NCBI GenBank assembly: GCA_036785375.1
Contig: JAWMAR010000070.1
Location: 7,378,001 to 7,442,000 of the forward strand
DNA from: Leucoraja ocellata
Lineage: Eukaryota
Direction: 5' to 3'
Length of the DNA: 64,000 nt
The translations under genes and the position numbers were made by a program. This document shows, piece after piece, positions 3,257 to 62,167 of this stretch (its first letter is position 1; the number at the start of each line of letters is the position of its first letter). The notes beneath the pieces are model-generated. The model did no database searches. It was not told where the DNA came from and saw only the letters and a list, made by a program, of their open reading frames with translations.

Positions 3257-3772
3257 TCACTGCACTGCCAGCTTGGTGTTTAGTTTACACGGCACGTTAT
3301 TAACCAGCCAAGCGCAGGAATATTTCCCAGCATCTTCCTCTTCCAGCCCCGTCAGGACCAACGAGGCGTCCCGTGTCTCAACCACGTTTGTTTTCATGAA
3401 CTTCCTGCGTCCGGGTGACCCTGGATATTGCGCACCGTTCCTGTCAGTAAACACGGCGATCGTATCTTTTCCTTTTGTCCACAGCACCACAAATTTATCG
3501 GCTGCACCGTCTTCTTTGGGCATTTTGCAGGATAGTTGAGCAGAACCACCCTTACTGGCCGTCACCTCTGTCCATCTCATCTTATCCGGAGCGAGGTTAA
3601 CAGCGCATTGTGGAGTTGGATTTTCGGTGACTTGTCGAGGAGCCCGTGCGTTCCGCCCGGCCAAGTTTGCTTCCTCTCCCCATTCTCTGGAGATCGGACC
3701 TGTTCCAGTTGCGGAGACTTGCCACACCATCTCCACAAGGACCATGAATCCTATCCATTTCTGCAGTCCCAT
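3257..3772 (-). CDS. Secreted single V-set Ig-domain protein, copy A1 (171 aa)
   Basis: ATG at 3772, 4 nt after a CACAG acceptor. Signal peptide MGLQKWIGFMVLVEMVWQVSA; propeptide ending RAPR|Q; V-set hallmarks GGSAQLSC, W, DASLVLTGL..EDAGKYSC; stop right after the G strand; AATAAA (minus) at 3185-3190. Confidence 0.88.
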   Translation of the reverse strand: MGLQKWIGFMVLVEMVWQVSATGTGPISREWGEEANLAGRNARAPRQVTENPTPQCAVNLAPDKMRWTEVTASKGGSAQLSCKMPKEDGAADKFVVLWTKGKDTIAVFTDRNGAQYPGSPGRRKFMKTNVVETRDASLVLTGLEEEDAGKYSCAWLVNNVPCKLNTKLAVQ

Positions 3773-6536: not shown

Positions 6537-7052
6537 TCACTTCACTGTCAGCTTGATATTTAGTCTACATTCCTTTTGGCCAGTGAACCAAGCGCAGGAA
6601 TATATCCCAATATCAGTCTCGAGTAAACCTATGATGACCAACGAGGCATCCCGTGTCCCATCCACGTTTGTATTCATGAACCTCCAGCGGCCGACCCCCC
6701 CTGGATAGGTCGCACCATTCCCTTTAGTAAACACGCCCAGTGTCCCGCTCCCTTTACTCCAGGTGATCACAAAATTCGCGGGTCCAGTCTTCCCTGTGGG
6801 TACTTTACAGGGTAGCGTAGCAGAACCACCCCTGCGTGCCGTCACATCCGTGTATTTCATCTTGTTCGCAGCTGGCTTAGCACCGCATTCTGGAGAACTT
6901 TGTTTTTTGACTTGTCGAGGCTCTCGTGCGTTCCACCCGGGCAAGTTTGCTTCCTCTCCCCATTCTCTGGAGATCGGACCTGTTCCAGTTGCGGAGACTT
7001 GCCACACCATCTCCACAAGGACCATGAATCCTATCCATCTCTGCAGTCCCAT
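6537..7052 (-). CDS. Secreted single V-set Ig-domain protein, copy A2 (171 aa)
   Basis: Same leader; REPR|Q; GGSATLPC, ITW, DASLVIIGL..TDIGIYSC, extra G-strand Cys (ECRLNIKLTVK*). Confidence 0.88.
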   Translation of the reverse strand: MGLQRWIGFMVLVEMVWQVSATGTGPISREWGEEANLPGWNAREPRQVKKQSSPECGAKPAANKMKYTDVTARRGGSATLPCKVPTGKTGPANFVITWSKGSGTLGVFTKGNGATYPGGVGRWRFMNTNVDGTRDASLVIIGLLETDIGIYSCAWFTGQKECRLNIKLTVK

Positions 7053-9655: not shown

Positions 9656-10668
9656 TTGGCCTAGTTATGCAGGCCTCGCTGGGACCACATCAACGGCTGA
9701 CTGTGCAAGAGGTTGCGGAGGTTGCCGGGATTGGAAGGGAGATAACTGAGCTCTATCGGCCCCCTTGTAAGACCGACTCCCTAGAAACTCCCGGGAACGT
9801 CTGTGATCCTTCATCAGACATTGAATTGGTTCCCTGCCGAGGTTCTTAGCAACAGACAAAGGTCAGACCAGTTGGGCTTTATATGTTTTTTTTAAGAGGG
9901 GATTGTGTATGTATTTTTAAGGCAGCATTGTGCATGTATTTTTAAGAAAGGTCTTATGTATATTGTTAAGAAGGACGTGAGTGGTTCCTCTCTCTCTCTC
10001 TGTCTATCTCTCTTTGTTTTTTTCTCTCTCTACTAAGGGCTCATCAGCCTTGTTGAGATATCCGTGATTTGTCGGGTTGAGATACGGGGGTTGAAGTGTG
10101 TGTCTGGCTTATTGAGACATCCGAAGAGTTGTCGGGTTGAGAAATAAGTGACGTTGTATATTACAGTATTAAGAAGTCTACCAAGTTGAAAAAAACTGGG
10201 GTCTCGGTTAGCGGGTCTGCTTCGTTGAGACACTTGGGTCGTATATTAAAGAGTTAAAAAAGTCAGCCAAATTGAGAAACTGGGGTCTCATTTAGTGGGT
10301 CGGCCTGGTTGATATATTTGGAACGATTCGGAATTAAGAAGTCTGTTTTCTCTCTCTCTCTTTCTATCTATCTATGGGGAATGCTATTGATACCGGTCCT
10401 ATATATGTGTTATTTGAATCCTATGTATAATAAGAAATTTAGAATGTTAAGTTACAAGTTGACCAAATGGTTAGGGGATGAAGCCTGGCCAGTAGGGGGC
10501 ACATGGAATGTTGAGACAATTAAATAAGCAGAGGTGTTGATATGGGAAAGGAAGACAGGAAAGAAATGGAAGAAAGGAATTAAAACATGGAAATCAGGAA
10601 CAGAGGAGAAGCATGAGGAGAGTAGAGTTCGAAGTTGGATGGATACTACATGTAAGAAGGGGATAGAG

Positions 10669-11703
10669 TAGGTATGTTACAAAACTTACCTGAATCGTCA
10701 ATGAGAATCTGCCATCAGGCCGTGTGCGTGATTTTGGCGCTGTTTAGAGGAGACAGGTTTAAAACGAGATTTTTACTAGGCTGTTGCAATCGAAAATGTT
10801 CAGCCTAGTAAATCATTAACGGAGAATCGCTGGGGGACCCCGTCGCAAAGGGTGTTATTGGTTTTTATGGCCTTGTATGGTGGTTGTAGTAGTTTGGAGG
10901 TCACTCTCTAGATCCGCGACCTCTCGCAGGCCCAGGGTTTTATAAAGCAAACAATTAAAGGTATGTACCTTATTTTTACATTAAAAGGGGCTTCTTAAGA
11001 ACCTTAAAGTTTTCTATAGCGAGTAGCTCATTTTGGGCTTTTTATATCCCGCAGTATTTTTCTGGGCATTTGAGGGCACAAATCCAGCGCAATGTGAACG
11101 TTCTAAACCAGCGCATTCACAGGAACCCACTAGAAAGCAGATTTAAAATAGACTTTAATTTACAGCAATTGAACACTAAATTCCTTCCATTTGGCCTATA
11201 AATTGATGTAAATGAGATTTAAAAATCATGTTTTATTGTGAATTATTTGTGACTATTATTTGGACACTTAGGCTATTTAAAAATGTTAATCATTTATTAA
11301 GAAATGGATAGATGTTTGGATCTAGTAATTGAAGTTTGAAATTAGCTACAATTGGGTAACTAACTAATTATATGCTTTAATTTCAGGTCATCCAAGTAAG
11401 ATTATTTTATATTTGTTTCAGAATGCTTCAATCTATGATAACTGAAAATTTCATTCAGTTCTCTTAATTTTTAAGAAGGTTATGGGCTTTTGACTGTCCA
11501 TGATCACAGTTTTTTTGTTATGTCCATAGAAAATCAATAGGGAACAAGATGCTAATTCCCGAGTATGAAAATGGCCATAATTCTTTTATTACTTGAGATA
11601 TGAAAGTGAATTAGGTGTCAAATTAAACTTATTGTTATGCTTTATCTGATGGGATAAATTGCAGACTTGATTTTTTAAATCTCACAATTTTGTAACATTG
11701 CTA
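10669..11703. mobile_element. Non-autonomous TIR DNA transposon (~1035 bp) nested in the ERV gag remnant; second copy at 16352-17386
   Basis: Imperfect terminal inverted repeats TAGGTATGTTACAAAA / TTTTGTAACATTGCTA, flanked by a GATAGAG direct repeat (10662-10668, 11704-11710). Confidence 0.75.
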
Positions 11704-12070
11704 GATAGAGTTAAGAAACAAGGATAGCACTCGGAAAGGATGGAAATTAGTGCAACTAGAATGCCAGTGGGCAGAGGAACAAGAGAATAGAATTAAAAGA
11801 CAGACAGGAGGTGAGAAACAAGTGATGGTTCGTAAAAAATAAACCCAGTACTGGTAAATCCTCTGGAGGAGACTTCATGTCTGGCACGACAACCCTATTT
11901 GGTAATGAAGATGAGGAGTTAGATAATCTTGAGAGATGTCTACCAGTAGCAATGGCATCTTTACCTGGGACAGTTCCGTCAGTAACATCCCTATAACTTG
12001 AAGTTCTGACATTACAAAGCTCCCCAGGATTGGGAGCACGGGAATCCCTTTCTGTGTGTAATTTGTTAAG

Positions 12071-12700
12071 GCATTGATGCTACCAGAACAGCTGGTCATT
12101 ATTAAATGTACTGCACACACTGGTGCTGGGGACCCTATAGCAAAAGGCAATGAGTTGCCGATAGTGTATCCAAACAGGCAGCCTGTACATCCAAATGCAT
12201 AGTGACAGCAGCTAAACAGATGCTAGCAAATAGAACGGTCCTGCCAAACATGAGGGAGGTATGTACATTACAGAGGGACGCCTCTTATATATAAAATAAT
12301 TATGGAAACAAGAGGGCTGTGCCATTAATTCAGCACACCCCGCTTGGACAAGTTGGTGTATACGATACATTTTTACCCGTCTTACCCATGCTGGTAAGGA
12401 GGGAATGATAGGATAACAAAGGAAATGTGGTGGCACAACAGAAAATTTGATAAGAGGCACTGAAGCAGGCCTCTGAATGTAAAATTTGCCAATGAAATAA
12501 TCCAGGCAAACCAATTAGGATACCCTCAGGGGTGACGCCAATGCCATCATGATCGTTTGAATGCATACAGATTGATTTTATTGAGATGCCAAGGGCCCAG
12601 TGTTATAAATATTGCGTATTGATTTTAGATTTATTTAGTAGGTGGAGTGAAGCTCTACCAACCACCAATAATAAGGAAAATGTGCACATTTTAATATCTG
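12071..12700 (+). pseudogene. pol: Retroviral pol remnant (RNase H C-terminus, integrase Zn-finger and core); duplicate at 17754-18383
   Basis: ALMLPEQLVIIKCTAHTGAGDPIAKGN (RNase H), RLTHAGKEGM...ECKICQ (HHCC), IDFIEMPRAQCYKYCVLILDLFSRWSEALPT (integrase core); broken by stops and frameshifts. Confidence 0.85.
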
Positions 12701-14671
12701 ACAGAAATTCACTGTACACACCACCCACTGGTATCTGGGATGGTGGAAAGAGTCAATGGGGATTGCAAAACAAAATTACCCCGGAGGTAAATCCTTTTCC
12801 TGACAAGCAACTATGTTATAAAAATTGGGGATGAAGGAAAATTCAATGGAGAAATGAGGATAGGATAGGGAGACTGAATAGTCAAGGGCAGTCTGACTAA
12901 TCATGATCTGGATCAATGTCCAATTAGGGTTAGGTGACCAGGATTTTGGTCAACAGAAGTCTTGTCAGAAAAAGGGAAAGTAAATTACAAAGAGATGTCT
13001 TTGAAGATGAAATATTATATACTGCTGGTAAAACAATGTTTTTGTATATGTACTGCTTGTAAAACAATGTTTTTTGTATGTGGAATGTGTGAAATTCGAA
13101 GCAATGAGCAAAGTTGTGTGTCGCTTTAAATAGTTTGTCCTTTAAAATGCAAATAGACAAAGTTTATGGTGTGCTCAGTTAAAGAAACAGGCATGAATGG
13201 GGGGGCGGAGCTATACTCGATGATAAAATGTGTTGGTTGATTATAAATCTTTTAAACCAAGTTTTAAAAAAAAGACTCATCCCGATTAAAGTGTTAAATG
13301 AGATTGGAAATGTCAAAATTACAGAGAAAAGAAAATGTATTATTGATTACTGATTCTGAATGAGTTTTTTTGGGAAAGATTGTTTTGATATGATAACAGA
13401 GGTTGTCTTTTAAAATGTAAATGAAGCAAGATTACTGTTTTCAAGCAAACAAAAAGATGTTGCTGTAGCATGTGCTGTGTGAGTGAAATGAAGGTAGATG
13501 AAAAATTGTTTTATGACTTAAAAAAGGGGGTTTGAGGGAACTCACAATGAGGGATGAAAGGTGAGAAGATAAAGTAGATTGGGGAAGAGAACATATTTGG
13601 AGAATTGAATATTTAGGTGGGGAGAGCCTCTTTGGATATAATCGGATTAAAGGATAAATTCACAGGGAAGTGTTAAGAAGGGACTGGAGATACTGGAGGA
13701 TCAAAGGGGGACAAAAGTGCTGGAGAAACAGCTGGTGAACAAGATTCACAACTTTTTATTGATACAGGAAAAGCTGCTCTGTCCACCCCCTGGAGAGTGG
13801 GGGAAAGCCACCTACAGGCCCTGGGCAATTAACTAATTATGTATGGTCGGCAATTAACCCATGTCTTGCCAGATCTACATTCCCAGGTTGGAGGAGTTTT
13901 TGCTGGAAACCAGTGACCAAGGCCATAAAGGCTATACGATGGGGGTGCTGGGACAAGAAGAAATTGAGACTGTTGAAAGAAACAACCAAGTGTTGCTAAC
14001 AACATGAACTGCTGTAAAGATGAAAGATCATCGTCGCTGGATACATTTGATTGACTGTGAACAGTTTGTGGAAACAAGGACGATGGGCTATTGATGCTCC
14101 CTTTATTCTGGGGTAGCCCAGCCCACATGGACTGAACTTTCTTCAGAATGGCAAACTTGCAGACTAACCTACATTTAAAGGATGGTACACACCTCCTTTT
14201 AAAAAAGATTGAAGTCAAACATGACAAGCGCAGCAAAGATACCCTGACTACGGACAGTAAGAGGTCTGCAAAGGCCAGTTAAATCTACCTGTTTTTGCCA
14301 CAACCAAGGCACTGGTGTATATTAAGGAAACAGTATATTTGTGACAGGGCATTGTTATGTTGCAAATGCAGTGCCACACAAGAGAAGCATGAACCAGTTA
14401 CACCAGCACACAGGGAATTCCAAATGAAGCCGAATAAAGGCTGAGCAATTTTTATGAACCTTTTCCTGTCCTATGGTAGTATCTTAGTGTCACATCCGGG
14501 GGAGGTTGGTGGCCATTTAAAATGTTTGGAGGGACTTGTGAAACGATTGTCCACTATGAATTGATTGTGCTACTAGTGTACTATTAATTTGTCTGATGAG
14601 ATGCTTATGGTCTTTCGTATGTACTCAGGAAGGACTGCAGTTGTTATCAAAATTTTGATAAAAGGATGGAA

Positions 14672-15338
14672 TGATGAAGCCGAATTTTAGTTAAAAATAT
14701 AAGAAGATATTAAATTGGCTTCTGGGCTAGCTTACAGCTTATATTTAGTGTCAAATTAAACTTTCCTCAGGTTGCGGGGTGTGTGAGATAACATTGTCTC
14801 CCAAGTGAAGGAGCTAGAGAGATATCTTTGAAAGTAAGATGCCATAAACGAAATGACCAATGTTTATGGGGGAGGAGGCAATAAAGGAAGAGAGAAATAA
14901 ACAGTCACATCTTTGTAAACAAATGACCTATGTTTATGAGGGACCAAATGACAGAGGAAGCAGCGAAAAGAGCTAGGGTGGTCTATTTGGAGATAAGGCA
15001 AATGGCCAATGTTTTTAGTATATCTTGTACCATGTAAAAAAAAGGTTTGATGTGATGCATTCTGTGGAAACCTTTTCCAGTACCTCTGACCATGACTAAT
15101 GTCTGTGGAATGTGATAAGGGGACAAAAAAAACCTATTTAAGGCAATGTAATTCTGTTGTTAAGGGGAGGTGGCTGAGCACAGTCAAGTGTCTGTGTTGG
15201 TCACTTGACTGGAGTTCTCGCTCCCTTCCATCGGCTGATGTTAAGTAAAGTTTTGAACTGGTCTACCAAACAGTTTGTGTGGTGTCTGTTTATTAAGAAG
15301 CGAACCTAGTTTAGTAGTTAAGATAAGTAACTTTTTCA
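14672..15338 (+). repeat. LTR 2 (shared middle LTR)
   Basis: 667 bp, preceded by PPT and followed by PBS-like sequence. Confidence 0.92.
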
Positions 15339-18300
15339 TTGGCCTAGTTATGCAGGCCTCGCTGGGACCACATCAACGGCTGACTGTGCAAGAGGTTGCG
15401 GAGGTTGCCGGGATTGGAAGGGAGATAACTGAGCTCTATCGGCCCCCTTGTAAGACCGACTCCCTAGAAACTCCCGGGAACGTCTGTGATCCTTCATCAG
15501 ACATTGAATTGGTTCCCTGCCGAGGTTCTTAGCAACAGACAAAGGTCAGACCAGTTGGGCTTTATATGTTTTTTTTAAGAGGGGATTGTGTATGTATTTT
15601 TAAGGCAGCATTGTGCATGTATTTTTAAGAAAGGTCTTATGTATATTGTTAAGAAGGACGTGAGTGGTTCCTCTCTCTCTCTCTGTCTATCTCTCTTTGT
15701 TTTTTTCTCTCTCTACTAAGGGCTCATCAGCCTTGTTGAGATATCCGTGATTTGTCGGGTTGAGATACGGGGGTTGAAGTGTGTGTCTGGCTTATTGAGA
15801 CATCCGAAGAGTTGTCGGGTTGAGAAATAAGTGACGTTGTATATTACAGTATTAAGAAGTCTACCAAGTTGAAAAAAACTGGGGTCTCGGTTAGCGGGTC
15901 TGCTTCGTTGAGACACTTGGGTCGTATATTAAAGAGTTAAAAAAGTCAGCCAAATTGAGAAACTGGGGTCTCATTTAGTGGGTCGGCCTGGTTGATATAT
16001 TTGGAACGATTCGGAATTAAGAAGTCTGTTTTCTCTCTCTCTCTTTCTATCTATCTATGGGGAATGCTATTGATACCGGTCCTATATATGTGTTATTTGA
16101 ATCCTATGTATAATAAGAAATTTAGAATGTTAAGTTACAAGTTGACCAAATGGTTAGGGGATGAAGCCTGGCCAGTAGGGGGCACATGGAATGTTGAGAC
16201 AATTAAATAAGCAGAGGTGTTGATATGGGAAAGGAAGACAGGAAAGAAATGGAAGAAAGGAATTAAAACATGGAAATCAGGAACAGAGGAGAAGCATGAG
16301 GAGAGTAGAGTTCGAAGTTGGATGGATACTACATGTAAGAAGGGGATAGAGTAGGTATGTTACAAAACTTACCTGAATCGTCAATGAGAATCTGCCATCA
16401 GGCCGTGTGCGTGATTTTGGCGCTGTTTAGAGGAGACAGGTTTAAAACGAGATTTTTACTAGGCTGTTGCAATCGAAAATGTTCAGCCTAGTAAATCATT
16501 AACGGAGAATCACTGGGGGACCCCGTCGCAAAGGGTGTTATTGGTTTTTATGGCCTTGTATGGTGGTTGTAGTAGTTTGGAGGTCACTCTCTAGATCCGC
16601 GACCTCTCGCAGGCCCAGGGTTTTATAAAGCAAACAATTAAAGGTATGTACCTTATTTTTACATTAAAAGGGGCTTCTTAAGAACCTTAAAGTTTTCTAT
16701 AGCGAGTAGCTCATTTTGGGCTTTTTATATCCCGCAGTATTTTTCTGGGCATTTGAGGGCACAAATCCAGCGCAATGTGAACGTTCTAAACCAGCGCATT
16801 CACAGGAACCCACTAGAAAGCAGATTTAAAATAGACTTTAATTTACAGCAATTGAACACTAAATTCCTTCCATTTGGCCTATAAATTGATGTAAATGAGA
16901 TTTAAAAATCATGTTTTATTGTGAATTATTTGTGACTATTATTTGGACACTTAGGCTATTTAAAAATGTTAATCATTTATTAAGAAATGGATAGATGTTT
17001 GGATCTAGTAATTGAAGTTTGAAATTAGCTACAATTGGGTAACTAACTAATTATATGCTTTAATTTCAGGTCATCCAAGTAAGATTATTTTATATTTGTT
17101 TCAGAATGCTTCAATCTATGATAACTGAAAATTTCATTCAGTTCTCTTAATTTTTAAGAAGGTTATGGGCTTTTGACTGTCCATGATCACAGTTTTTTTG
17201 TTATGTCCATAGAAAATCAATAGGGAACAAGATGCTAATTCCCGAGTATGAAAATGGCCATAATTCTTTTATTACTTGAGATATGAAAGTGAATTAGGTG
17301 TCAAATTAAACTTATTGTTATGCTTTATCTGATGGGATAAATTGCAGACTTGATTTTTTAAATCTCACAATTTTGTAACATTGCTAGATAGAGTTAAGAA
17401 ACAAGGATAGCACTCGGAAAGGATGGAAATTAGTGCAACTAGAATGCCAGTGGGCAGAGGAACAAGAGAATAGAATTAAAAGACAGACAGGAGGTGAGAA
17501 ACAAGTGATGGTTCGTAAAAAATAAACCCAGTACTGGTAAATCCTCTGGAGGAGACTTCATGTCTGGCACGACAACCCTATTTGGTAATGAAGATGAGGA
17601 GTTAGATAATCTTGAGAGATGTCTACCAGTAGCAATGGCATCTTTACCTGGGACAGTTCCGTCAGTAACATCCCTATAACTTGAAGTTCTGACATTACAA
17701 AGCTCCCCAGGATTGGGAGCACGGGAATCCCTTTCTGTGTGTAATTTGTTAAGGCATTGATGCTACCAGAACAGCTGGTCATTATTAAATGTACTGCACA
17801 CACTGGTGCTGGGGACCCTATAGCAAAAGGCAATGAGTTGCCGATAGTGTATCCAAACAGGCAGCCTGTACATCCAAATGCATAGTGACAGCAGCTAAAC
17901 AGATGCTAGCAAATAGAACGGTCCTGCCAAACATGAGGGAGGTATGTACATTACAGAGGGACGCCTCTTATATATAAAATAATTATGGAAACAAGAGGGC
18001 TGTGCCATTAATTCAGCACACCCCGCTTGGACAAGTTGGTGTATACGATACATTTTTACCCGTCTTACCCATGCTGGTAAGGAGGGAATGATAGGATAAC
18101 AAAGGAAATGTGGTGGCACAACAGAAAATTTGATAAGAGGCACTGAAGCAGGCCTCTGAATGTAAAATTTGCCAATGAAATAATCCAGGCAAACCAATTA
18201 GGATACCCTCAGGGGTGACGCCAATGCCATCATGATCGTTTGAATGCATACAGATTGATTTTATTGAGATGCCAAGGGCCCAGTGTTATAAATATTGCGT

Positions 18301-20354
18301 ATTGATTTTAGATTTATTTAGTAGGTGGAGTGAAGCTCTACCAACCACCAATAATAAGGAAAATGTGCACATTTTAATATCTGACAGAAATTCACTGTAC
18401 ACACCACCCACTGGTATCTGGGATGGTGGAAAGAGTCAATGGGGATTGCAAAACAAAATTACCCCGGAGGTAAATCCTTTTCCTGACAAGCAACTATGTT
18501 ATAAAAATTGGGGATGAAGGAAAATTCAATGGAGAAATGAGGATAGGATAGGGAGACTGAATAGTCAAGGGCAGTCTGACTAATCATGATCTGGATCAAT
18601 GTCCAATTAGGGTTAGGTGACCAGGATTTTGGTCAACAGAAGTCTTGTCAGAAAAAGGGAAAGTAAATTACAAAGAGATGTCTTTGAAGATGAAATATTA
18701 TATACTGCTGGTAAAACAATGTTTTTGTATATGTACTGCTTGTAAAACAATGTTTTTTGTATGTGGAATGTGTGAAATTCGAAGCAATGAGCAAAGTTGT
18801 GTGTCGCTTTAAATAGTTTGTCCTTTAAAATGCAAATAGACAAAGTTTATGGTGTGCTCAGTTAAAGAAACAGGCATGAATGGGGGGGCGGAGCTATACT
18901 CGATGATAAAATGTGTTGGTTGATTATAAATCTTTTAAACCAAGTTTTAAAAAAAAGACTCATCCCGATTAAAGTGTTAAATGAGATTGGAAATGTCAAA
19001 ATTACAGAGAAAAGAAAATGTATTATTGATTACTGATTCTGAATGAGTTTTTTTGGGAAAGATTGTTTTGATATGATAACAGAGGTTGTCTTTTAAAATG
19101 TAAATGAAGCAAGATTACTGTTTTCAAGCAAACAAAAAGATGTTGCTGTAGCATGTGCTGTGTGAGTGAAATGAAGGTAGATGAAAAATTGTTTTATGAC
19201 TTAAAAAAGGGGGTTTGAGGGAACTCACAATGAGGGATGAAAGGTGAGAAGATAAAGTAGATTGGGGAAGAGAACATATTTGGAGAATTGAATATTTAGG
19301 TGGGGAGAGCCTCTTTGGATATAATCGGATTAAAGGATAAATTCACAGGGAAGTGTTAAGAAGGGACTGGAGATACTGGAGGATCAAAGGGGGACAAAAG
19401 TGCTGGAGAAACAGCTGGTGAACAAGATTCACAACTTTTTATTGATACAGGAAAAGCTGCTCTGTCCACCCCCTGGAGAGTGGGGGAAAGCCACCTACAG
19501 GCCCTGGGCAATTAACTAATTATGTATGGTCGGCAATTAACCCATGTCTTGCCAGATCTACATTCCCAGGTTGGAGGAGTTTTTGCTGGAAACCAGTGAC
19601 CAAGGCCATAAAGGCTATACGATGGGGGTGCTGGGACAAGAAGAAATTGAGACTGTTGAAAGAAACAACCAAGTGTTGCTAACAACATGAACTGCTGTAA
19701 AGATGAAAGATCATCGTCGCTGGATACATTTGATTGACTGTGAACAGTTTGTGGAAACAAGGACGATGGGCTATTGATGCTCCCTTTATTCTGGGGTAGC
19801 CCAGCCCACATGGACTGAACTTTCTTCAGAATGGCAAACTTGCAGACTAACCTACATTTAAAGGATGGTACACACCTCCTTTTAAAAAAGATTGAAGTCA
19901 AACATGACAAGCGCAGCAAAGATACCCTGACTACGGACAGTAAGAGGTCTGCAAAGGCCAGTTAAATCTACCTGTTTTTGCCACAACCAAGGCACTGGTG
20001 TATATTAAGGAAACAGTATATTTGTGACAGGGCATTGTTATGTTGCAAATGCAGTGCCACACAAGAGAAGCATGAACCAGTTACACCAGCACACAGGGAA
20101 TTCCAAATGAAGCCGAATAAAGGCTGAGCAATTTTTATGAACCTTTTCCTGTCCTATGGTAGTATCTTAGTGTCACATCCGGGGGAGGTTGGTGGCCATT
20201 TAAAATGTTTGGAGGGACTTGTGAAACGATTGTCCACTATGAATTGATTGTGCTACTAGTGTACTATTAATTTGTCTGATGAGATGCTTATGGTCTTTCG
20301 TATGTACTCAGGAAGGACTGCAGTTGTTATCAAAATTTTGATAAAAGGATGGAA

Positions 20355-21021
20355 TGATGAAGCCGAATTTTAGTTAAAAATATAAGAAGATATTAAATTG
20401 GCTTCTGGGCTAGCTTACAGCTTATATTTAGTGTCAAATTAAACTTTCCTCAGGTTGCGGGGTGTGTGAGATAACATTGTCTCCCAAGTGAAGGAGCTAG
20501 AGAGATATCTTTGAAAGTAAGATGCCATAAACCAAATGACCAATGTTTATGGGGGAGGAGGCAATAAAGGAAGAGAGAAATAGACAGTCACATCTTTGTA
20601 AACAAATGACCTATGTTTATGAGGGACCAAATGACAGAGGAAGCAGCGAAAAGAGCTAGGGTGGTCTATTTGGAGATAAGGCAAATGGCCAATGTTTTTA
20701 GTATATCTTGTACCATGTTAAAAAAAGGTTTGATGTGATGCATTCTGTGGAAACCTTTTCCAGTACCTCTGACCATGAATAATGTCTGTGGAATGTGATA
20801 AGGGGACAAAAAAACCCTATTTAAGGCAATGTAATTCTGTTGTTAAGGGGAGGTGGCTGAGGACAGTCAAGTGTCTGTGTTGGTCACTTGACTGGAGTTC
20901 TCCCTCCCTTCCATCGGCCGATGTTAAGTAAAGTTTTGAACTGGTCTACCAAACAGTTTGTGTGGTGTCTGTTTATTAAGAAGCGAACCTGGTTTAGTAG
21001 TTAAGATAAGTAGCTTTTTCA
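20355..21021 (+). repeat. LTR 3 (3')
   Basis: 667 bp, followed by TSD GTGT. Confidence 0.92.
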
Positions 21022-21169
21022 GTGTGGTCTATAGATATTGATGACTTCAGTGGAACAAGATGTAAAGAAGGTGTTTATCCCTCGATCAGCGCATTGAAAT
21101 CCCTCCTCAACATTAACAGTTCGGAACAATTATTATTTGCATCCCAAGTCAAACTGAACTGCCCTCATT

Positions 21170-25506: not shown

Positions 25507-26019
25507 TCACATCACTGTCAGCTTGGTATTTAGTCTACATTCCTCTTTGCCAGTGAACCAAGCGCAGGAATACATCCCAACATCACTCTTCTGTAAACCC
25601 GTGATGACCAACGAGGCATCCCGTGTCCCATCCACGTTTGTTTCCTTGAACGACCAGCGGCCGGCCCCCCCTGGATAGGTCGCACCTTTCCCTTTAGTAA
25701 ACACGGCCAGTGTCCCCTTCCCTTTACTCCAGGTGACAGCAAAGTTGCTGGGTCCATCCTTCCCTGTGGGTACTATACAGGGTAGCGTAGCAGAACCACC
25801 CTTTGCCGTCACATCCGTGAATTTCATCTTGTTCGCAGCTGGCCTAGCACCGCATTCTGGAGTATCTTGTTTGTTGACTTGTCGAGGCTCCCGTGCGTTC
25901 CACCCGGGCAAGTTTGCTTCCTCTCCCCATTCTCTGGAGATCGGACCTGTTCCAGTTGCGGAGACTTGCCACACCATCTCCACAAGGACCATGAATCCTA
26001 TCCATCTCTGCAGTCCCAT
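25507..26019 (-). CDS. Secreted single V-set Ig-domain protein, copy A3 (170 aa)
   Basis: Same leader; REPR|Q; GGSATLPC, VTW, DASLVITGL..SDVGMYSC, ECRLNTKLTVM*. Confidence 0.88.
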   Translation of the reverse strand: MGLQRWIGFMVLVEMVWQVSATGTGPISREWGEEANLPGWNAREPRQVNKQDTPECGARPAANKMKFTDVTAKGGSATLPCIVPTGKDGPSNFAVTWSKGKGTLAVFTKGKGATYPGGAGRWSFKETNVDGTRDASLVITGLQKSDVGMYSCAWFTGKEECRLNTKLTVM

Positions 26020-26668
26020 GTTCCTGTGGGTGAAACAATGGGTCACCTTATTGCAACTCAGTAGGATTCATGATGACATTCCCTGAACCCGCCCAGAGTT
26101 GGGGAATCGAGAACCAGAGGACATCGGTTTAAGGCGAGGGGGGGGGGGAAAGATTTAATGGGAAACTGAGGGGTGACTTTTTTACACAAAGGGTGGAGGG
26201 TGTTTGGAACGAGCTGCCGGAAGAGGTAGTTGGGGCAGGTACTATCACAATGATTAAGAAACAGTTAGACAGGTACATTGATAGGACAGGATTAGAGGGG
26301 TAAGGGCCAAACGCAGGCAGGTGGGTCTAGTATTGATGGGACACGTTGGTGGGCGTGGGCAAGTTGGGCCGAAGGTCTCGCTGTGACTCTATGACTCCAT
26401 CACTTGTCCCACCCCGGTCATTCCTCCTTCTCCCTGGTCCTGTCTAGCAGAAGGTACAGAAGCTTGAAAGCGCGCACCACCAGACTCAGGAACAGCTTCT
26501 TCCCCTCTGCTATCAGGCTTCTGAACTGGGGGAACAGTGAACAGAGACAATCCCACCCCCATCACTCACAGACACTTGAAGGATCCACAGGGTTGGTTAC
26601 CAGCTCCGGAGTCTCCACACAGGGTGACGGGGTCGGTCTTGTTCTCATCTCCTGCCATCGCTCGCTCC

Positions 26669-26941
26669 TTTTATACCGACTCCCGGCTTCTCCTGCCCCT
26701 CATTGTCTGCCCTCACGTACATTCAACCAATCACTGCCTCCCACGGAGCATTGGCCGGAGTCAGCCGCGACCTCTCCACCCTCTGCCAAACGTGTCGTTG
26801 CATCAGCCGTTAACGTTTAACAAGAACAACGTCATCCCAGCTGCCAGCGGCCAACCAGGCGCCCCACACATCCTGCTTGTGTCTCCACCACGTCTCGCTT
26901 TGGCCACCCATCGGACCAGATGTCCCAGCCACGCCACGTCA
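26669..26941 (-). promoter_or_regulatory. Promoter of A3: TATA 26669-26675, ERSE 26727-26745, UPRE 26934-26941
   Basis: Motifs read directly. Confidence 0.7.
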
Positions 26942-29632: not shown

Positions 29633-30172
29633 ATGGGACTGCAGAGATGGATAGGATTCATGGTCCTTGTGGAGATGGTGTGGCAAGTCTCCGTAACTGG
29701 AACAGGTCCGATCTCCAGAGAATGGGGAGAGGAAGCAAACTTGGCCGGGCGGAACGCACGGGCGTATTTCAAAGTCACCAATAAACCGCTTCCAAGATGC
29801 ACGAACGAGTCAGATTCTGATGCCATCAGTCATCACCCATCACCGATTAACAAGAAGGTGCTCGTTGCATCTCTGGGCGGTTCTGTTACGTTGCCATGTA
29901 ATATATCCATCCTTAAAAATCATTACAGGTTTGTTGAATGGATAAAAGATGGTGTTGAAATTGCCCATTTCCATGAGAGAGCGTATGCGCATTATACGGG
30001 ATCTGATGTTCACTGGAAGTTCGTTGATCACGACGTCTATGTGACTCAGGACGCCACGTTGCTCCTGACAGGTGTAAAAGAGGAAGATAAAGGGACGTAT
30101 TCCTGTGTTTGGTCCGTGTATAGAGATAGACCGTTTTGTGAATTATTGATGCAGCTGGTGATCTCTCACTGA
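29633..30172 (+). CDS. Secreted single V-set Ig-domain protein, copy B1 (179 aa)
   Basis: Leader; RNAR-AYFK junction; LGGSVTLPC, VEW, DATLLLTGVKEEDKGTYSC, extra Cys PFCELL; stop after the G strand. Confidence 0.9.
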   Translation: MGLQRWIGFMVLVEMVWQVSVTGTGPISREWGEEANLAGRNARAYFKVTNKPLPRCTNESDSDAISHHPSPINKKVLVASLGGSVTLPCNISILKNHYRFVEWIKDGVEIAHFHERAYAHYTGSDVHWKFVDHDVYVTQDATLLLTGVKEEDKGTYSCVWSVYRDRPFCELLMQLVISH

Positions 30173-31132: not shown

Positions 31133-32376
31133 GATTAAAGGGCCTGTCCCACGAGCATGCGACTCCATGCGGCAAGCGCGACCTAACGTGGTCACTTGAG
31201 CCGTACGGCCTCGCGGGGCCGGTCCCACTTTGATCGCCGGAGCCGTATGGAGTTGTGTGGAGCTGGTCCCGACATCGCGCGGGGCTCTGAAAAACTGAAT
31301 ATGTTAGGATATGGAAACAGGTTCTTCGGCCCACCGAGTCTAACCCAACCAGTGATCACCCCTACACTAGTTCTAACCTACACACTACGGACAATTTACT
31401 GAAGCCAATTAACCTACAAATCTACACATCTTTGTAATCTGAAAGGAAACCAGAGCACCCGGAGGAAACCCACGTGGTCACAGGGACAATGTACATACAC
31501 TGTACAGACAGTGCCCGTAGTTACCATCGAAGGCGGGTCTCTAGCGCTGTAAGGCAGCAACTCTACCGCTGCGCCACTGTACCGCCCCTGCATTGCCCTC
31601 GTGCATTGTTAGGGCTGCTGATTAGAGTCCAGTTTTGACCCTCGTTGGGTGTCAATTGTGGTTGTCAAGGAGCTTTCTTACCTCCGTATGGAGCCTGGTC
31701 TTCCAGTTATAGACCCACACCACCCTGGCCACACTCTCGTATCACCACTACTGAGGGGAAAGTACAGGAGCCTGAGAACCGTGAGCTCCAGGTTCAAGAG
31801 CAGCTTCTTCCCAGCAAGCACAAGGTTGTTGAACCAGCCTGCACAACCCCAACCATAACCCTACGCCACTCACCACAACCCTACACAACCCTGATGGACA
31901 CTGCACCACTGGTGATATAAAGTTACTGTGCAGACCAAGTGCAGATCCATTGGGTCTGCTCCCCCAACGCAATATTCCACCACTCACCCGCTCCCCAACA
32001 CTATATTCCACCACTCACTCATAGCCCCCAACTCTGGAGGCGCGGCTCATTTCGCCGCATCCCCTCTTCCTACTCTTCACCCTCCCTCTTCAATACCTAG
32101 AGGGAGAGAGGAGGGGGAGAGAAGGAGAGAGGCAGAGAGAAAGGAGGTAGAGAGAGAGTGGGAAGGGGTAGAGGGAGAAGGAGGGTGGTAGTGGGGGGGG
32201 GGGAGGGATTAAATACATTCTTCTCAAGCTTACCCCCAGTCTAGTTCAGTCAAAAACCACTGAGTCAAGCACTGGAACAACTAATCTTTATTTTTGGATT
32301 GTACATCAAATTCCCCTACACGATACCTAAACCACTGCGGGTTCAATCCTTGTATCTGCTTGGCCAAGCCCTTCAG

Positions 32377-34172
32377 GTCCCTTGCAGTCAGAAGCAAGTG
32401 AATTGATCATGGGGAACAAGGACATGGCAGACCAATTGAATAACTACTTTGGTTCTGTCTTCACTAAGGAAGACATAAATAATCTGCCGGAAATAGCAGG
32501 GGACCGCGGGTCAAATGAGATGGAGGAACTGAGTGAAATCCAGGTTAGCCGGGAAGTGGTGGTAGGTAAATTGAATGAATTAAAAGCCGATAAATCCCCA
32601 GGGCCAGATAGGTTGCATCCCAGAGTACTTAAGGAAGTAGCCCCAGAAATAGTGGATGCATTAGTGATAATTTTTCAAAACTCTTTAGATTTGGAAGTAG
32701 TTCCTGAGGATTGGAGGGTAGCTAATGTAACACCACATTTTAAAAAGAGAGGGAGAGAGAAAATGGGGAATTACAGACCAGTTAGTCTAACGTCGGTAGT
32801 GGGGAAACTGCTAGAATCAGTTATTAAAGATGGGATAGTAGCACATTTGGAAAGTGGTGAAATCATTGGACAAGGTCAGCATGGATTTATGAAGGGTAAA
32901 TCATGTCTGACGAATCTTATAGAATTTTTCGAGGATGTAACTAGTAGAGTGGATAAGGGAGAACCAGTGGATGTGTTGTATCTGGACTTCCAGAAGGCTT
33001 TCAACAAGGTCCCACATAAGAGATTAGTATACAAACTTAAAGCACACGGTATTGGGGGTTCAGTACTGATGTGGATAGAGAACTGGCTGGCAGACAGAAA
33101 GCAAAGAGTAGGAGTAAACGGGTCCTTTTCAGAATGGCAGGCAGTGACTAGTGGGGTACCGCAAGGCTCAGTTCTGGGACCCCAGCTATTTACGGTATAT
33201 ATTAATGATTTGGACGAGGGAATTGAATGCAACATCTCCAAGTTTGCGGATGACACAAAGCTGGGGGCAGTGTTAGCTGTGAGGAGGATGCTAGGAGGCT
33301 GCAAGGTGACTTGGATAGGCTGGGTTGGTGGGCAAATGCATGGCAGATGCAGTATAATGTGGATAAATGTGAGGTTATCCACTTTGGTGGCAAAAACAGG
33401 AAATTAGACTATTATCTGAATGGTGGCCGATTAGGAAAGGGGGAGATGCAACGAGACCTGGGTGTCATGGTACACCAGTCATTAAAAGTAGGCATGCAGG
33501 TGCAGCAGGCAGTGAAGAAGGCGAATGGTATTTTAGCATTCATAGCAAAAGGATTTGAGTATAGGAGAAGGGAGGTTCTACTGCAGTTGTACATGCTCTT
33601 GGTGAGACCACACCTGGAGTATTGCGTACAGTTTGGTCTCTTAATCTGAGGAAAGACATTCTTGCCATAGAGGGAGTACAGAGAAGGCTCACCAGACTGA
33701 TTCCTGGGATGTCAGGACTTTCATATGACGAAAGACTGGATAGACTCGGTTTGTACTCGCTAGAATTTAGAAGATTGAGGGGGGATCTTATAGAAACTTA
33801 CAAAATTCTTAAGGGGTTGGACAGGCTAGATGCAGGAAAATTGGTCCCGATGTTGGGGAAGTCCAGAACAAGGGGTCACAGTTTAAGGATAAGGGGGAAA
33901 TCTTTTGGGGCCGAGATGAGGAAAACTTTTTTCACACAGCGTGGTGAATCTCTGGAACTCTCTGCCACAGAGGGTAGTTGAAGCCAGTTCATTGGCTATA
34001 TTTAAGAGGGAGTTAGATGTGGCCCTTGTGGCTAAATGGATCAGGTGGTATGGAGAGAACGCAGGTACAGGATACTGAGTTGGATGATCTGCCATGATCA
34101 TATTGAATGGCAGTGCAGGCTCGAAGGGCCGAATGGCCTACTCCTGCACCTGTACCTATATATGTTTCTATG
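32377..34172 (+). mobile_element. 5'-truncated CR1 LINE (~1.8 kb, RT domain with frameshifts), unique to the B1 unit
   Basis: [51 protein letters not shown]; TSD TTCAG (32372-32376 and 34173-34177); empty site ccttcagcctcg in three other units. Confidence 0.93.
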
Positions 34173-35588: not shown

Positions 35589-35898
35589 CTATTTTCCATG
35601 TTTCTATGGGAGCCTCGATCGCCTCGATGCAGCAGTTTGATTTTAAGCCGCTTGGGCGCTGAAAGGCCCCGCGAACGGGACGATTCTGCCCATAGAAAGC
35701 GTCTGATAAAGTCCGGAACACAAAACATGGGCGGGGGGGGAATCGTCCCCCACCTCCCAAAGCATAGGGGGACATGCCCCCTGTCCCCCCCCCCCAGGAT
35801 TCCTGCCCATGGCGGTCACGATGTCTCCTTCACCGCCGCAGTCTCGACGCCTCTATGATGGCCGCGAAAAACTCAGATCTCTGGGTTGACCAGAACGA

Positions 35899-36124
35899 GA
35901 CGTGGTGGAGACACAAGCAGGATGTGTGGGGCGCCTGGTTGGCCGCTGGCAGCTGGGATGACGTTGTTCTTGTTAAACGTTAACGGCTGATGCAACGACA
36001 CGTTTGGCAGAGGGTGGAGAGGTCGCGGCTGACTCCGGCCAATGCTCCGTGGGAGGCAGTGATTGGTTGAATGTACGTGAGGGCAGACAATGAGGGGCAG
36101 GAGAAGCCGGGAGTCGGTATAAAA
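35899..36124 (+). promoter_or_regulatory. Promoter of B2 (ERSE 36048-36066, TATA 36118-36124)
   Basis: Same motif block as B1. Confidence 0.7.
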
Positions 36125-36771
36125 GGAGCGAGCGATGGCAGGAGATGAGAACAAGACCGACCCCGTCACCCTGTGTGGAGACTCCGGAGCTGGTAACCAA
36201 CCCTGTGGATCCTTCAAGTGTCTGTGAGTGATGGGGGTGGGATTGTCTCTGTTCACTGTTCCCCCAGTTCAGAAGCCTGATAGCAGAGGGGAAGAAGCTG
36301 TTCCTGAGTCTGGTGGTGCGCGCTTTCAAGCTTCTGTACCTTCTGCTAGACAGGACCAGGGAGAAGGAGGAATGACAGGGGTGGGACAAGTGATGGAGTC
36401 ATAGAGTCACAGCGAGACCTTCGGCCCAACTTGCCCGCGCCCACCAACGTGTCCCCATCAATACTAGACCCACCTGCCTGCGTTTGGCCCTTACCCCTCT
36501 AATCCTGTCCTATCAATGTACCTGTCTAACTGTTTCTTAATCATTGTGATAGTACCTGCCTCAACTACCTCTTCCGGCAGCTCGTTCCAAACACCCTCCA
36601 CCCTTTGTGTAAAAAAAGTCACCCCTCAGTTTCCCATGAAATCTTTCCCCCCCTCACCTTAAACCGATGTCCTCTGGTTCTCGATTCCCCAACTCTGGGC
36701 GGGTTCAGGGAATGTCATCATGAATCCTACTGAGTTGCAATAAGGTGACCCATTGTTTCACCCACAGGAAC

Positions 36772-37308
36772 ATGGGGCTGCAGAGATGGATAGGATTCAT
36801 GGTCCTTGTGGAGATGGTGTGGCAAGTCTCCGTAACTGGAACAGGTCCGATCTCCAGCGAATGGGGAGAGGAAGCAAACTTGGCCGGGTGGAATGCACGG
36901 GCCCCTCGGCAAGTCACCGATGAACAGCTTCCAAGATGCACGGACAAGTCAGATTCTGATGCCATCAGTCATCACCTATCAACGATTAACAAGAAGGTGC
37001 TCGTTGCATCTCTGGGTGGTTCTGTTACGTTGCCATGTAATGTATCCAACGTTGACAATAGTCCCACGGTTACATGGAAAAAAGATGGTGTTGAAATTGC
37101 CTATTTCCATAGTAGAGTGCATGAGCGTTATAAGGGATCTGATGTTCACTGGAAGTTCGTGGAACGAAACGTCCTTTGGAAACAGGACGCCACGTTGCTC
37201 CTGACAGGTGTAAAAGAGGAAGATACAGGGACGTATTCCTGTGTTTGGATCAAGTATCCTAAGAAACCGTTTTGTGAATTATTGATGCAGCTGATGATCT
37301 CTCACTGA
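36772..37308 (+). CDS. Secreted single V-set Ig-domain protein, copy B2 (178 aa)
   Basis: Leader; RAPR|Q; CNVSNVDNSPTVTW; EDTGTYSCVWIKYPKKPFC. Confidence 0.9.
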   Translation: MGLQRWIGFMVLVEMVWQVSVTGTGPISSEWGEEANLAGWNARAPRQVTDEQLPRCTDKSDSDAISHHLSTINKKVLVASLGGSVTLPCNVSNVDNSPTVTWKKDGVEIAYFHSRVHERYKGSDVHWKFVERNVLWKQDATLLLTGVKEEDTGTYSCVWIKYPKKPFCELLMQLMISH

Positions 37309-43281: not shown

Positions 43282-43818
43282 ATGGGACTGCAGAGATGGA
43301 TAGGATTCATGGTCCTTGTGGAGATGGTGTGGCAAGTCTCCGCAACTGGAACAGGTCCGATCTCCAGAGAATGGGGAGAGGAAGCAAACTTGGCCGGGCG
43401 GAACGCACGGGCTCCTCGACAAGTCACCAATGAAACGCTTCCAAGATGCACGAACGAGTCAGATTCTGATGCCATCAGTCATCACCTATCAACGATTAAC
43501 AAGAAGGTGCTCGTTGCATCTCTGGGTGGTTCTGTTACTTTGCCATGTAATGTATCCAACGTTGACAATAGTCCCGAGGTTACATGGAATAAAGATGGTG
43601 TTGAAATTGCCTATTTCCATAGTAGAGTGCATGAGCGTTATACAGGATCTGATGTTCACTGGAAGTTCGTGCAACGAAACGTCCTTTGGGAACAGGACGC
43701 CACGTTGCTCCTGACAGGTGTAAAAGAGGAAGATAAAGGGACGTATTCCTGTGTTTGGATCAAGTATCGTCAGAAACCGGTTTGTGAATTATTGATGCAG
43801 CTGATGATCTCTCACTGA
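43282..43818 (+). CDS. Secreted single V-set Ig-domain protein, copy B3 (178 aa)
   Basis: Leader; RAPR|Q; CNVSNVDNSPEVTW; EDKGTYSCVWIKYRQKPVC. Confidence 0.9.
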   Translation: MGLQRWIGFMVLVEMVWQVSATGTGPISREWGEEANLAGRNARAPRQVTNETLPRCTNESDSDAISHHLSTINKKVLVASLGGSVTLPCNVSNVDNSPEVTWNKDGVEIAYFHSRVHERYTGSDVHWKFVQRNVLWEQDATLLLTGVKEEDKGTYSCVWIKYRQKPVCELLMQLMISH

Positions 43819-49740: not shown

Positions 49741-50280
49741 ATGGGACTGCAGAGATGGATAGGATTCATGGTCCTTGTGGAGATGGTGTGGCAAGTCTCC
49801 GCAACTGGAACAGGTCCGATCTCCAGAGAATGGGGAGAGGAAGCAAACTTGGCCGGGCGGAACACACGGGCGTATTTCAAAGTCACCAATGAACCGCTTC
49901 CAAGATGCACGAACGAGTCAGATTCTGATGCCATCAGTCATCACCCATCACCGATTAACAAGAAGGTGCTCGTTGCATCTCTGGGTGGTTCTGTTACGTT
50001 GCCATGTAATATATCCATCCTTAAAAATCATTACAGGGTTGTTCAATGGAAAAAAGATGGTGTTCAAATTGCCAGTTTCCATGAGAGAGCGTATGCGCGT
50101 TATACGGGGTCTGATGTTCACTGGAAGTTCGTTGATCACGACGTCTATATGGCTCAGGACGCCACGTTGCTCCTGACAGGTGTAAAAGAGGAAGATACAG
50201 GGACGTATTCCTGTGTTTGGTTCCATTATAGAGATAGACCGTTTTGTGAATTATTGATGCAGCTGATGATCTCTCACTGA
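49741..50280 (+). CDS. Secreted single V-set Ig-domain protein, copy B4 (179 aa, B1-type)
   Basis: Leader; RNTR-AYFK; CNISILKNHYRVVQW; EDTGTYSCVWFHYRDRPFC. Confidence 0.9.
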   Translation: MGLQRWIGFMVLVEMVWQVSATGTGPISREWGEEANLAGRNTRAYFKVTNEPLPRCTNESDSDAISHHPSPINKKVLVASLGGSVTLPCNISILKNHYRVVQWKKDGVQIASFHERAYARYTGSDVHWKFVDHDVYMAQDATLLLTGVKEEDTGTYSCVWFHYRDRPFCELLMQLMISH

Positions 50281-56250: not shown

Positions 56251-56787
56251 ATGGGACTGCAGAGATGGATAGGATTCATGGTCCTTGTGGAGATGGTGTG
56301 GCAAGTCTCCGCAACTGGAACAGGTCCGATCTCCAGAGAATGGGGAGAGGAAGCAAACTTGGCCGGGCGGAACGCACGGGCCCCTCGGCAAGTCACCAAT
56401 GAAACGCTTCCAAGATGCACGAACGAGTCAGATTCTGATGCCATCAGTCATCACCTATCAACGATTAACAAGAAGGTGCTCGTTGCATCTCTGGGTGGTT
56501 CTGTTACTTTGCCATGTAATGTATCCAACGTTGACAATAGTCCCGAGGTTACATGGAATAAAGATGGTGTTGAAATTGCCTATTTCCATAGTAGAGTGCA
56601 TGAGCGTTATAAGGGATCTGATGTTCACTGGAAGTTCGTGCAACGAAACGTCCTTTGGGAACAGGACGCCACGTTGCTCCTGACAGGTGTAAAAGAGGAA
56701 GATAAAGGGACGTATTCCTGTGTTTGGATCAAGTATCGTCAGAAACCGGTTTGTGAATTATTGATGCAGCTGATGATCTCTCACTGA
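56251..56787 (+). CDS. Secreted single V-set Ig-domain protein, copy B5 (178 aa)
   Basis: Differs from B3 by one residue (RYKG vs RYTG). Confidence 0.9.
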   Translation: MGLQRWIGFMVLVEMVWQVSATGTGPISREWGEEANLAGRNARAPRQVTNETLPRCTNESDSDAISHHLSTINKKVLVASLGGSVTLPCNVSNVDNSPEVTWNKDGVEIAYFHSRVHERYKGSDVHWKFVQRNVLWEQDATLLLTGVKEEDKGTYSCVWIKYRQKPVCELLMQLMISH

Positions 56788-61630: not shown

Positions 61631-62167
61631 ATGGGACTGCAGAGATGGATAGGATTCATGGTCCTTGTGGAGATGGTGTGGCAAGTCTCCGCAACTGGAA
61701 CAGGTCCGATCTCCAGAGAATGGGGAGAGGAAGCAAACTTGGCCGGGCGGAACGCACGGGCTCCTCGACAAGTCACCAATGAAACGCTTCCAAGATGCAC
61801 GAACGAGTCAGATTCTGATGCCATCAGTCATCACCTATCAACGATTAACAAGAAGGTGCTCGTTGCATCTCTGGGTGGTTCTGTTACTTTGCCATGTAAT
61901 GTATCCAACGTTGACAATAGTCCCGAGGTTACATGGAATAAAGATGGTGTTGAAATTGCCTATTTCCATAGTAGAGTGCATGAGCGTTATACAGGATCTG
62001 ATGTTCACTGGAAGTTCGTGCAACGAAACGTCCTTTGGGAACAGGACGCCACGTTGCTCCTGACAGGTGTAAAAGAGGAAGATAAAGGGACGTATTCCTG
62101 TGTTTGGATCAAGTATCGTCAGAAACCGGTATGTGAATTATTGATGCAGCTGATGATCTCTCACTGA
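61631..62167 (+). CDS. Secreted single V-set Ig-domain protein, copy B6 (178 aa)
   Basis: Protein identical to B3; a synonymous GTT/GTA difference near the end. Confidence 0.9.
   Translation: MGLQRWIGFMVLVEMVWQVSATGTGPISREWGEEANLAGRNARAPRQVTNETLPRCTNESDSDAISHHLSTINKKVLVASLGGSVTLPCNVSNVDNSPEVTWNKDGVEIAYFHSRVHERYTGSDVHWKFVQRNVLWEQDATLLLTGVKEEDKGTYSCVWIKYRQKPVCELLMQLMISH

Follow-up and report, generated by a model that had tools for sequence, protein, structure and literature searches.

A skate gene family for likely secreted proteins with one V-set immunoglobulin domain, in which a near-identical 5′ block adjoins divergent mature domains

This analysis of a 64-kb stretch of Leucoraja ocellata DNA (64,000 nucleotides, hereafter the window) found that a ~1-kb 5′ block, 98% identical, is joined inside one coding exon to divergent immunoglobulin (Ig) domains, and both the gene family that carries it and the conservation of the block are far above chance level. 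Based on these findings, we propose, with a probability of roughly 0.55, that these genes are a multigene family of skates, each encoding one V-set Ig domain in a likely secreted protein; in this reading, the binding face would be under diversifying selection, gene conversion would be the likely reason why the block from promoter to linker stays near-identical, and the linker is predicted to be cut by a furin-type convertase. Counter-evidence to this explanation includes Glu14, which makes the signal peptide atypical.

The gene family and its V-set Ig domain

The open reading frame at 36772-37308 of the plus strand encodes 178 aa, with codons 1-48 at 36772-36915. It belongs to a set of nine family copies in the window, three on the minus strand (A) and six on the plus strand (B), each of which encodes, in a single coding exon, a hydrophobic leader followed by a linker of 23 aa and a lone V-set Ig domain. 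The features of this gene and its paralogues in the window are as follows.

35884..36916, plus strand: near-identical 5′ block, probably homogenised, of ~1.04 kb, from the promoter through exon 1 and the intron to codon 48; A and B genes agree here at ~98%
36048..36066, minus strand: CCAAT-N9-CCACG, which we take to be the ERSE consensus; 9 window matches versus 0.13 expected, present in 59/59 copies
36118..36223, plus strand: TATA box and exon 1, with an ATG at 36135, 17 nt from the TATA box, that shares the frame of the main ATG in 55/59 copies
36224..36767, plus strand: intron of 544 nt, GT-AG, with a Y-type middle, mostly interspersed repeat
36772..36840, plus strand: predicted signal peptide, residues 1-23, with the hydropathy peak at residues 9-16 and the atypical Glu14 in the hydrophobic core
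36841..36909, plus strand: linker or putative propeptide, residues 24-46, predicted disordered, with R43-A-P-R46 at 36898-36909
36910..37308, plus strand: putative mature V-set Ig domain from Gln47 (Pfam V-set, E 2.1e-10; AF2; Foldseek)
3257..3772, minus strand: paralogue A1, subfamily 5; RNAR and RAPR-Q
6537..7052, minus strand: paralogue A2, subfamily 2, X intron; REPR-Q
25507..26019, minus strand: paralogue A3, subfamily 2, Y intron; REPR-Q
29633..30172, plus strand: paralogue B1; RNAR-AYFK only
43282..43818, plus strand: paralogue B3; RNAR and RAPR-Q
49741..50280, plus strand: paralogue B4; RNTR-AYFK only
56251..56787, plus strand: paralogue B5; RNAR and RAPR-Q
61631..62167, plus strand: paralogue B6; RNAR and RAPR-Q

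Across the genome, a 25-nt leader pattern had 59 matches versus 0 for the reversed control; a search with the mature domain likewise gave 59 matches, every one inside the leader-pattern set, and found no Ig domain of the family without the leader. These copies, of which 57 lie in C70:6.99-7.52 Mb and two on contig C16, were all inspected, and 52 are intact and 7 broken. The intact copies, which like all family counts here are assembled copies and not independent events, encode 37 distinct proteins in 7 subfamilies with a mature identity of 28-51% between subfamilies. The C70 array comprises two collinear units, one of 32 copies (C70:6,984,805-7,313,129) bounded by 200-N gaps and one of 25 (7,313,130-7.56 Mb), and eight consecutive gene pairs across them are 99.6-100% identical over 2.7 kb. 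The units are probably two haplotypes placed in tandem by the assembly; therefore, the true family size is likelier 25-32 genes plus the 2 on C16, and copy number probably differs between the haplotypes (32 versus 25).

Several copies stand apart from this pattern. Those on C16 (L001 and L002, at 1.775 and 1.786 Mb) are diverged, with linker deletions of 10 and 7 residues, one being intact and the other truncated in the Ig domain. One subfamily is known from broken copies only (L016, L022, L027, L040 and L046), the frame being lost in the E strand or earlier, and Gln replaces R46 in L022 and L027. Two orphan fragments, 98% identical, consist of promoter, exon 1 and intron start (L071:2216-2657 and L072:2133-2574); no Ig exon was found beside them in a 7-kb stretch, where unrelated DNA follows.

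The closest proteins are uncharacterised RefSeq entries from Leucoraja erinacea and Rhinoraja longicauda, and P0005 matches window copy A1 at 124/125 mature residues. In a profile search of 1.84 billion representatives, P0001 was the sole single-domain full-length match among the best 150 of 4513, below which single-domain relatives under 89 bits would fall; within the same 150, the best per-domain score outside skates was 45 bits versus 152-188 for 7 skate proteins. Among the matches listed in the database and profile searches, no close relatives were found outside skates, and a search for longer or fused forms, limited to 7999 candidates, returned chance-level matches to Robo3 and Dscam only, which is weak evidence. 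The database members are all “uncharacterized LOC” entries, and no description of the family was found among the listings of the open literature; the family is apparently undescribed.

The mature part shows the invariant C, W, D and Y of a V-set domain, C′ and C″ strands in the model, a Pfam V-set match above the cut-off and matches to IgV structures. Cys89-Cys157 is the canonical pair, Cys56 and Cys168 would form a second disulfide, and the four cysteines are kept in 51/52 intact copies. The AF2 model, made for one copy, has a confident Ig core (block pLDDT 80-93) and a linker that is not docked on the Ig domain. The best Foldseek matches, at 17-29% identity, were the IgV domains of nectin-1 (5b21, E 2.3e-8), PD-L1 (6sru), PVR and CD226/CD96, and they represent generic V-set likeness, not orthology. 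An origin from TMIGD3/CD300, considered through synteny with the mammalian CHIA region, was not supported, as the ATP5PB-family matches lie on other contigs and the cysteine pattern differs. By hydropathy no transmembrane segment was found, the maximum 19-aa value of the window copy being 1.27 and no 19-mer of the family copies exceeding 1.54 after residue 30, and the copies end at the G strand or shortly after it; the proteins are thus predicted as likely secreted.

Mature-domain omega was 2.52 in subfamily 1 (19 distinct sequences, p 2e-4) and 2.09 in subfamily 2 (13 sequences, p 3e-4), both computed with recombination ignored, which inflates omega. The variable sites cluster on strands C, C′ and C″ and on loops BC, DE and FG, where V domains usually bind their ligands, which suggests that the binding face may be under diversifying selection. 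The net charge of the mature part ranges from -6 to +13 by subfamily, and subfamilies 1, 3, 6 and 7 are neutral or acidic. Subfamily 2 mature parts (window 6537-7052 and 25507-26019) are strongly cationic, +5 to +13; should any member be antimicrobial or polyanion-binding, these would be the first to consider.

The near-identical and probably homogenised 5′ block

The preliminary description reported the prepro region as almost invariant across A and B, and indeed the nine window copies agree at 87-100% over residues 1-46, whereas after residue 46 the identity between A and B is 29-38%. However, the conserved stretch does not start at the signal peptide but ~890 nt upstream of the ATG. Self-BLAST aligned 25875-26909 with 36916-35884 at 97.8% identity, and the A-B match spans ~-896 to +148 nt relative to the ATG at 98%. 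Over 840 between-subfamily pairs, the p-distance was 0.007 in the promoter, 0.004 in exon 1 and 0.004-0.017 in the intron parts, and most of the family intron is interspersed repeat, yet 98-99% conserved. These per-part values supersede the first intron distances, which were confounded by two intron types.

Silent changes follow the same division. Comparing 6 subfamily representatives in 15 pairs, we found differences at 0/260 fourfold silent sites in codons 1-37, 21/114 in codons 38-55 and 71/291 in the Ig domain, counts that replace an NG86 mature dS of 0.66 inflated by multi-hit codons. Codon models gave an omega of 0.98 for codons 1-46 (p 0.7 versus omega=1) and of 1.13 for codons 24-46, which is not different from 1. 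The 3′ flanks of subfamilies 1, 3 and 6 are only 84-90% alike, and therefore the genes far predate their 5′ blocks; between A and B the 3′ flank has no match beyond a 42-48-nt piece with subfamily 6.

The middle of the intron occurs in two unrelated types, X in 12 copies (both C16 genes included) and Y in 47, and no significant match was found between Y and X. The Y intron is present on subfamilies 1, 3, 4, 5 and part of 2 and needs 3 changes on the Ig tree, a single Y clade being rejected by the AU test (p 2e-21; 39 rows after merging identical sequences), while the 5′ tree is nearly a star, with a length of 0.21 versus 2.96 for the mature tree. The near-identity of the prepro region is hence likely to stem from gene conversion of the whole 5′ block and not from toxin-style constraint. 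Since the non-coding DNA is equally invariant and the prepro dN/dS is ~1, the likeness of the copies cannot be counted as separate evidence that the propeptide is functional. We regard it as highly probable that conversion between clustered copies would homogenise the 5′ block and fade at codons 38-52, where selected divergence would begin.

The boundary itself is not sharp at the R-x-x-R motif, contrary to what had been described, but forms a ramp from codon 38 to ~52 that runs through it. Per-codon divergence between subfamilies, at most 0.27 nt per pair up to codon 37, reaches 0.67 at codon 38, 1.35 at codon 44, 1.23 at codon 46 and 2.3 at codon 52, and R43 (0.08), V48 (0.04), and also P54 and C56, are spared inside the ramp. 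The claimed collapse of identity past the motif holds for A versus B, where DNA identity ends at +144 to +148 nt (codons 48-50), but not among the B copies, whose mature parts are 72-100% identical.

Leader, linker and the readings of the precursor

The choice of a signal-peptide cut is governed by the -3/-1 rule, and the 21-aa signal assigned earlier gives way to a predicted one of 23 residues, since Val21 occurs in 8/52 intact copies and a cut after residue 23 fits all 52 better. This 23-aa leader, with a hydrophobic core of ~12 residues that contains a Glu, would very probably direct secretion of the protein from a restricted cell type, one promoter being common to all copies. The linker has an acidic EWGEE patch and a whole-linker net charge of +1. 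In the copy at 36772 it reads ISSEW, not the claimed ISREW, and this copy also carries Val21; B1 (29633) and B4 (49741) have RNAR-AYFK and RNTR-AYFK exactly as claimed.

The motif R-x-x-R, known as the furin recognition motif (PMC5280213), is found in the linker of 52/52 intact copies. Its conservation in relatives, on which the claim of proteolytic maturation had been made to depend, extends to 10/10 database relatives. The count of 52/52 is weak evidence, as the copies are not independent, and the motif itself is weak, arising in 17-64% of shuffles of the same linker. Among the 51 intact C70 copies, 19 carry R40, R43 and R46, 22 carry R43 and R46, and 10 carry R40 and R43; R43 is present in all 51, with silent change only, none has R43 alone, and none is without both R40 and R46. 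The C16 copies, whose linkers are shortened by 7 and 10 residues, keep RVPR-Q, which is also found in Rhinoraja P0003, and loss of R46 probably arose only 1-2 times. An optimal furin site, R-X-K/R-R, has a basic P2; here that position holds Pro, Ala or Thr in every motif listed and never Lys or Arg. The site lies in a segment predicted to be flexible (precursor residues 24-51, pLDDT < 50 in the AF2 model of one copy), and Gln follows it directly in 43/52 copies. To our knowledge, few lone Ig domains carry a cleavable prosegment.

The layout of leader, linker and variable Ig domain, the R-x-x-R in all copies and the pLDDT below 50 together make proteolytic maturation plausible, and we somewhat favour cleavage of the linker by a convertase. 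The cut would follow R46, and R43 in the 10 copies that lack R46, and would release a ~125-130-aa domain, the N-terminal Gln of which, in 43/52 copies, could cyclise; both steps of this proposal we hold with the same modest preference. Of the proteolytically matured Ig-domain effector proposed in the preliminary description, the layout and the motif thus stand, and a prepro region held as in toxins or defensins is not supported, given its dN/dS of 0.98 and equally invariant non-coding DNA. The absence of R-x-x-R from the mature domain (0/52 after Cys56) was discarded as support, its chance presence being just 4-42% per subfamily and RFPR standing directly before Cys56 (residues 52-55) in 5 intact copies (L005, L006, L035, L036 and L037).

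The most serious competitor, which we consider clearly less probable than cleavage, keeps the same family and its homogenisation and dispenses with maturation: R-x-x-R would be incidental and residues 24-55 would stay as a flexible N-terminal tail. The frequency of the motif in shuffled linkers (17-64%), the linker omega of 1.13, the never basic P2, and the variation of R40 and of R46 are all compatible with such a tail, and R43 could be conserved merely by its position in the converted zone. Nevertheless, the motif is absent from 0/52 intact copies and 0/10 database relatives, R43 and V48 stay constant where neighbouring codons vary, and two in-frame deletions on C16 spare the motif, all of which speaks against such an incidental tail.

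As to function, the array lies among chitinase genes. Exons of GH18 chitinases occur across C70:6.93-7.96 Mb; grouped, they make up roughly 16 genes, of which some are duplicated with the array. Four chitinase genes are inside the Ig array, and the nearest, which ends ~1.6 kb left of the window, has an intact DxDxE motif and a chitin-binding-type last exon. Among the flanking ORFs, 1/146 non-repeat ORFs matches Pfam, and it is a chitinase exon. The chitinase-Ig link may be positional only, and capture of the promoter from a chitinase gene was rejected, the 60 promoter-pattern matches being 58 family genes and 2 orphan 5′ fragments, with 0 at chitinases. The window further contains a tandem duplication at 8989-21024 (5683-nt period, 99.8% identity, no family gene inside) and a LINE-like reverse-transcriptase fragment at 32331-33407 (PF00078, E 3.6e-27).

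Expression was followed in 8 of 12 RNA runs, covering ~1-32% of each, which may be of another species than the window; depth over the coding exon was zero in 7/8, and run X13 did not exceed 1x (36754-36997). The 8 runs showed neither a splice joint nor a start site, the two single-cell or short-read types among them may miss expression of the family, and repeat-derived reads pile up on the intron at 36224-36767 in every run mapped.

With about even odds, the released domains could together form a germline-encoded set of soluble proteins that bind the surfaces of microbes or parasites in a mucosal secretion, where the neighbouring chitinases might plausibly act beside them. It is rather unlikely that the secreted variants serve reproduction or signalling instead of defence, be it in oviducal, clasper or alkaline-gland secretion, gamete recognition or pheromone-like codes. 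Positive selection is equally typical of reproductive proteins, and the selection on the mature domain, the restriction of close relatives to skates among the matches listed and the zero coding-exon depth in 7/8 RNA runs would all suit that role, but the probable haplotype difference in copy number, the pseudogenes and the nearby chitinases are more in keeping with a defence cluster.

We consider very unlikely an effector of toxin or defensin type in which selection on the peptide would hold the prepro region invariant, for example as an inhibitory propiece. The precursor layout matches such effectors, as would the cationic charge of the subfamily 2 mature parts (+5 to +13) and the acidic EWGEE patch of the linker. 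However, the prepro omega is 0.98, intron and promoter are conserved as much as the prepro region, the whole linker is of net charge +1 and subfamilies 1, 3, 6 and 7 are neutral or acidic, and AF2 places the linker off a domain whose fold is IgV. Nothing in the sequence and structure analysis points to toxic or antimicrobial activity.

The start site bears on whether the leader is a signal peptide at all. In 59/59 copies a TATA box and a short exon 1 are followed by a GT-AG intron that ends 4 nt before the ATG, with one broken copy shifted by a base. The RefSeq proteins point to this splice as well, and so does P0164, which comes from a 900-nt contig and spans the exon junction, and so implies a spliced transcript. 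P0164 and the 9 Leucoraja RefSeq proteins retrieved start at the exon-1 ATG, adding 31 residues (36135-36223). We take the exon-2 ATG as the main start, and the exon-1 extension is probably 5′ UTR. Translation from exon 1, which would leave the hydrophobic stretch uncleaved as a type II anchor and have a convertase shed the Ig domain from it, is very unlikely, for although the frame is open in 55/59 copies and the extended database proteins mean that some RNA contains that ATG, it lies 17 nt from the TATA box, upstream of the usual start site at ~30 nt, its frame is broken in 4/59 copies, 2 of them otherwise intact, the Rhinoraja model begins at MGLQ without the 31 residues, and a ~12-residue core with a Glu is poor for an anchor.

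Comparison with known systems

The closest parallel to the homogenised family of likely secreted V domains proposed here is the Hessian fly SSSGP-1 family, for which the same conservation pattern and a proposed explanation by concerted homogenisation are published (PMC2955719). There, clustered tandem and inverted copies conserve the promoter, 5′ UTR, intron and signal region, and the mature region is positively selected; the SSSGP-1 3′ UTR is highly conserved as well (PMC2955719). The skate 3′ flank is 84-90% alike in subfamilies 1, 3 and 6 and not common to A and B. The likeness is one of pattern and not of homology, as the skate family is vertebrate, has the Ig fold and carries an extra linker with R-x-x-R. 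Conotoxins resemble it in their signal, pro and hypervariable, positively selected mature parts, but these parts are encoded on separate exons, with poorly conserved introns and a short Cys-rich product (PMC3862624). The skate genes have the boundary within a single exon and a probably homogenised intron, and they encode an Ig domain of ~125 aa. A conserved-prepro and variable-mature pattern can arise without detectable selection on the prepro region, which calls for caution in toxin-mining by architecture.

Regional conversion between clustered Ig-superfamily genes is also described for SIGLEC11/SIGLEC16, in which the ligand-binding exon is converted, while in the skate family that part is excluded (PMC5701461). 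With a boundary of homogenised and diversifying DNA inside one exon, dozens of copies and an intron marker for tracing conversion, the skate array offers a clean vertebrate case. The best fold and profile matches are nectin, PVR, PD-L1 (B7), CD226 and JAML, and the variable residues lie on the same front face, although those are membrane receptors without such a linker or the N-to-G-strand disulfide suggested here. CD300, pIgR, TMIGD3 and the skate MDIR receptors have a transmembrane segment and a second, C-C′ disulfide; the skate family lacks these features, having no transmembrane-level hydropathy and its extra cysteines at 56 and 168, with none in C-C′.

The VCBPs of amphioxus and Ciona form a secreted V-domain multigene family of soluble binders in the gut with a link to chitin, and they have two V domains and a fused chitin-binding domain (PMC4008424). 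The skate proteins differ in having one V domain, a stop after the G strand and no chitin-binding domain, the chitinases being just neighbours. We suggest, speculatively and as a rather improbable extension of our reading, that skates may possess a lineage-specific germline repertoire of protease-matured single-V-domain recognition proteins, with one interchangeable promoter-leader-propeptide cassette spread by conversion, which together with the interleaved chitinases might constitute a split VCBP-like mucosal defence of a jawed vertebrate. If a ligand is found, V domains that are small and soluble, have two disulfides and vary naturally on one face would be of interest to comparative immunology.
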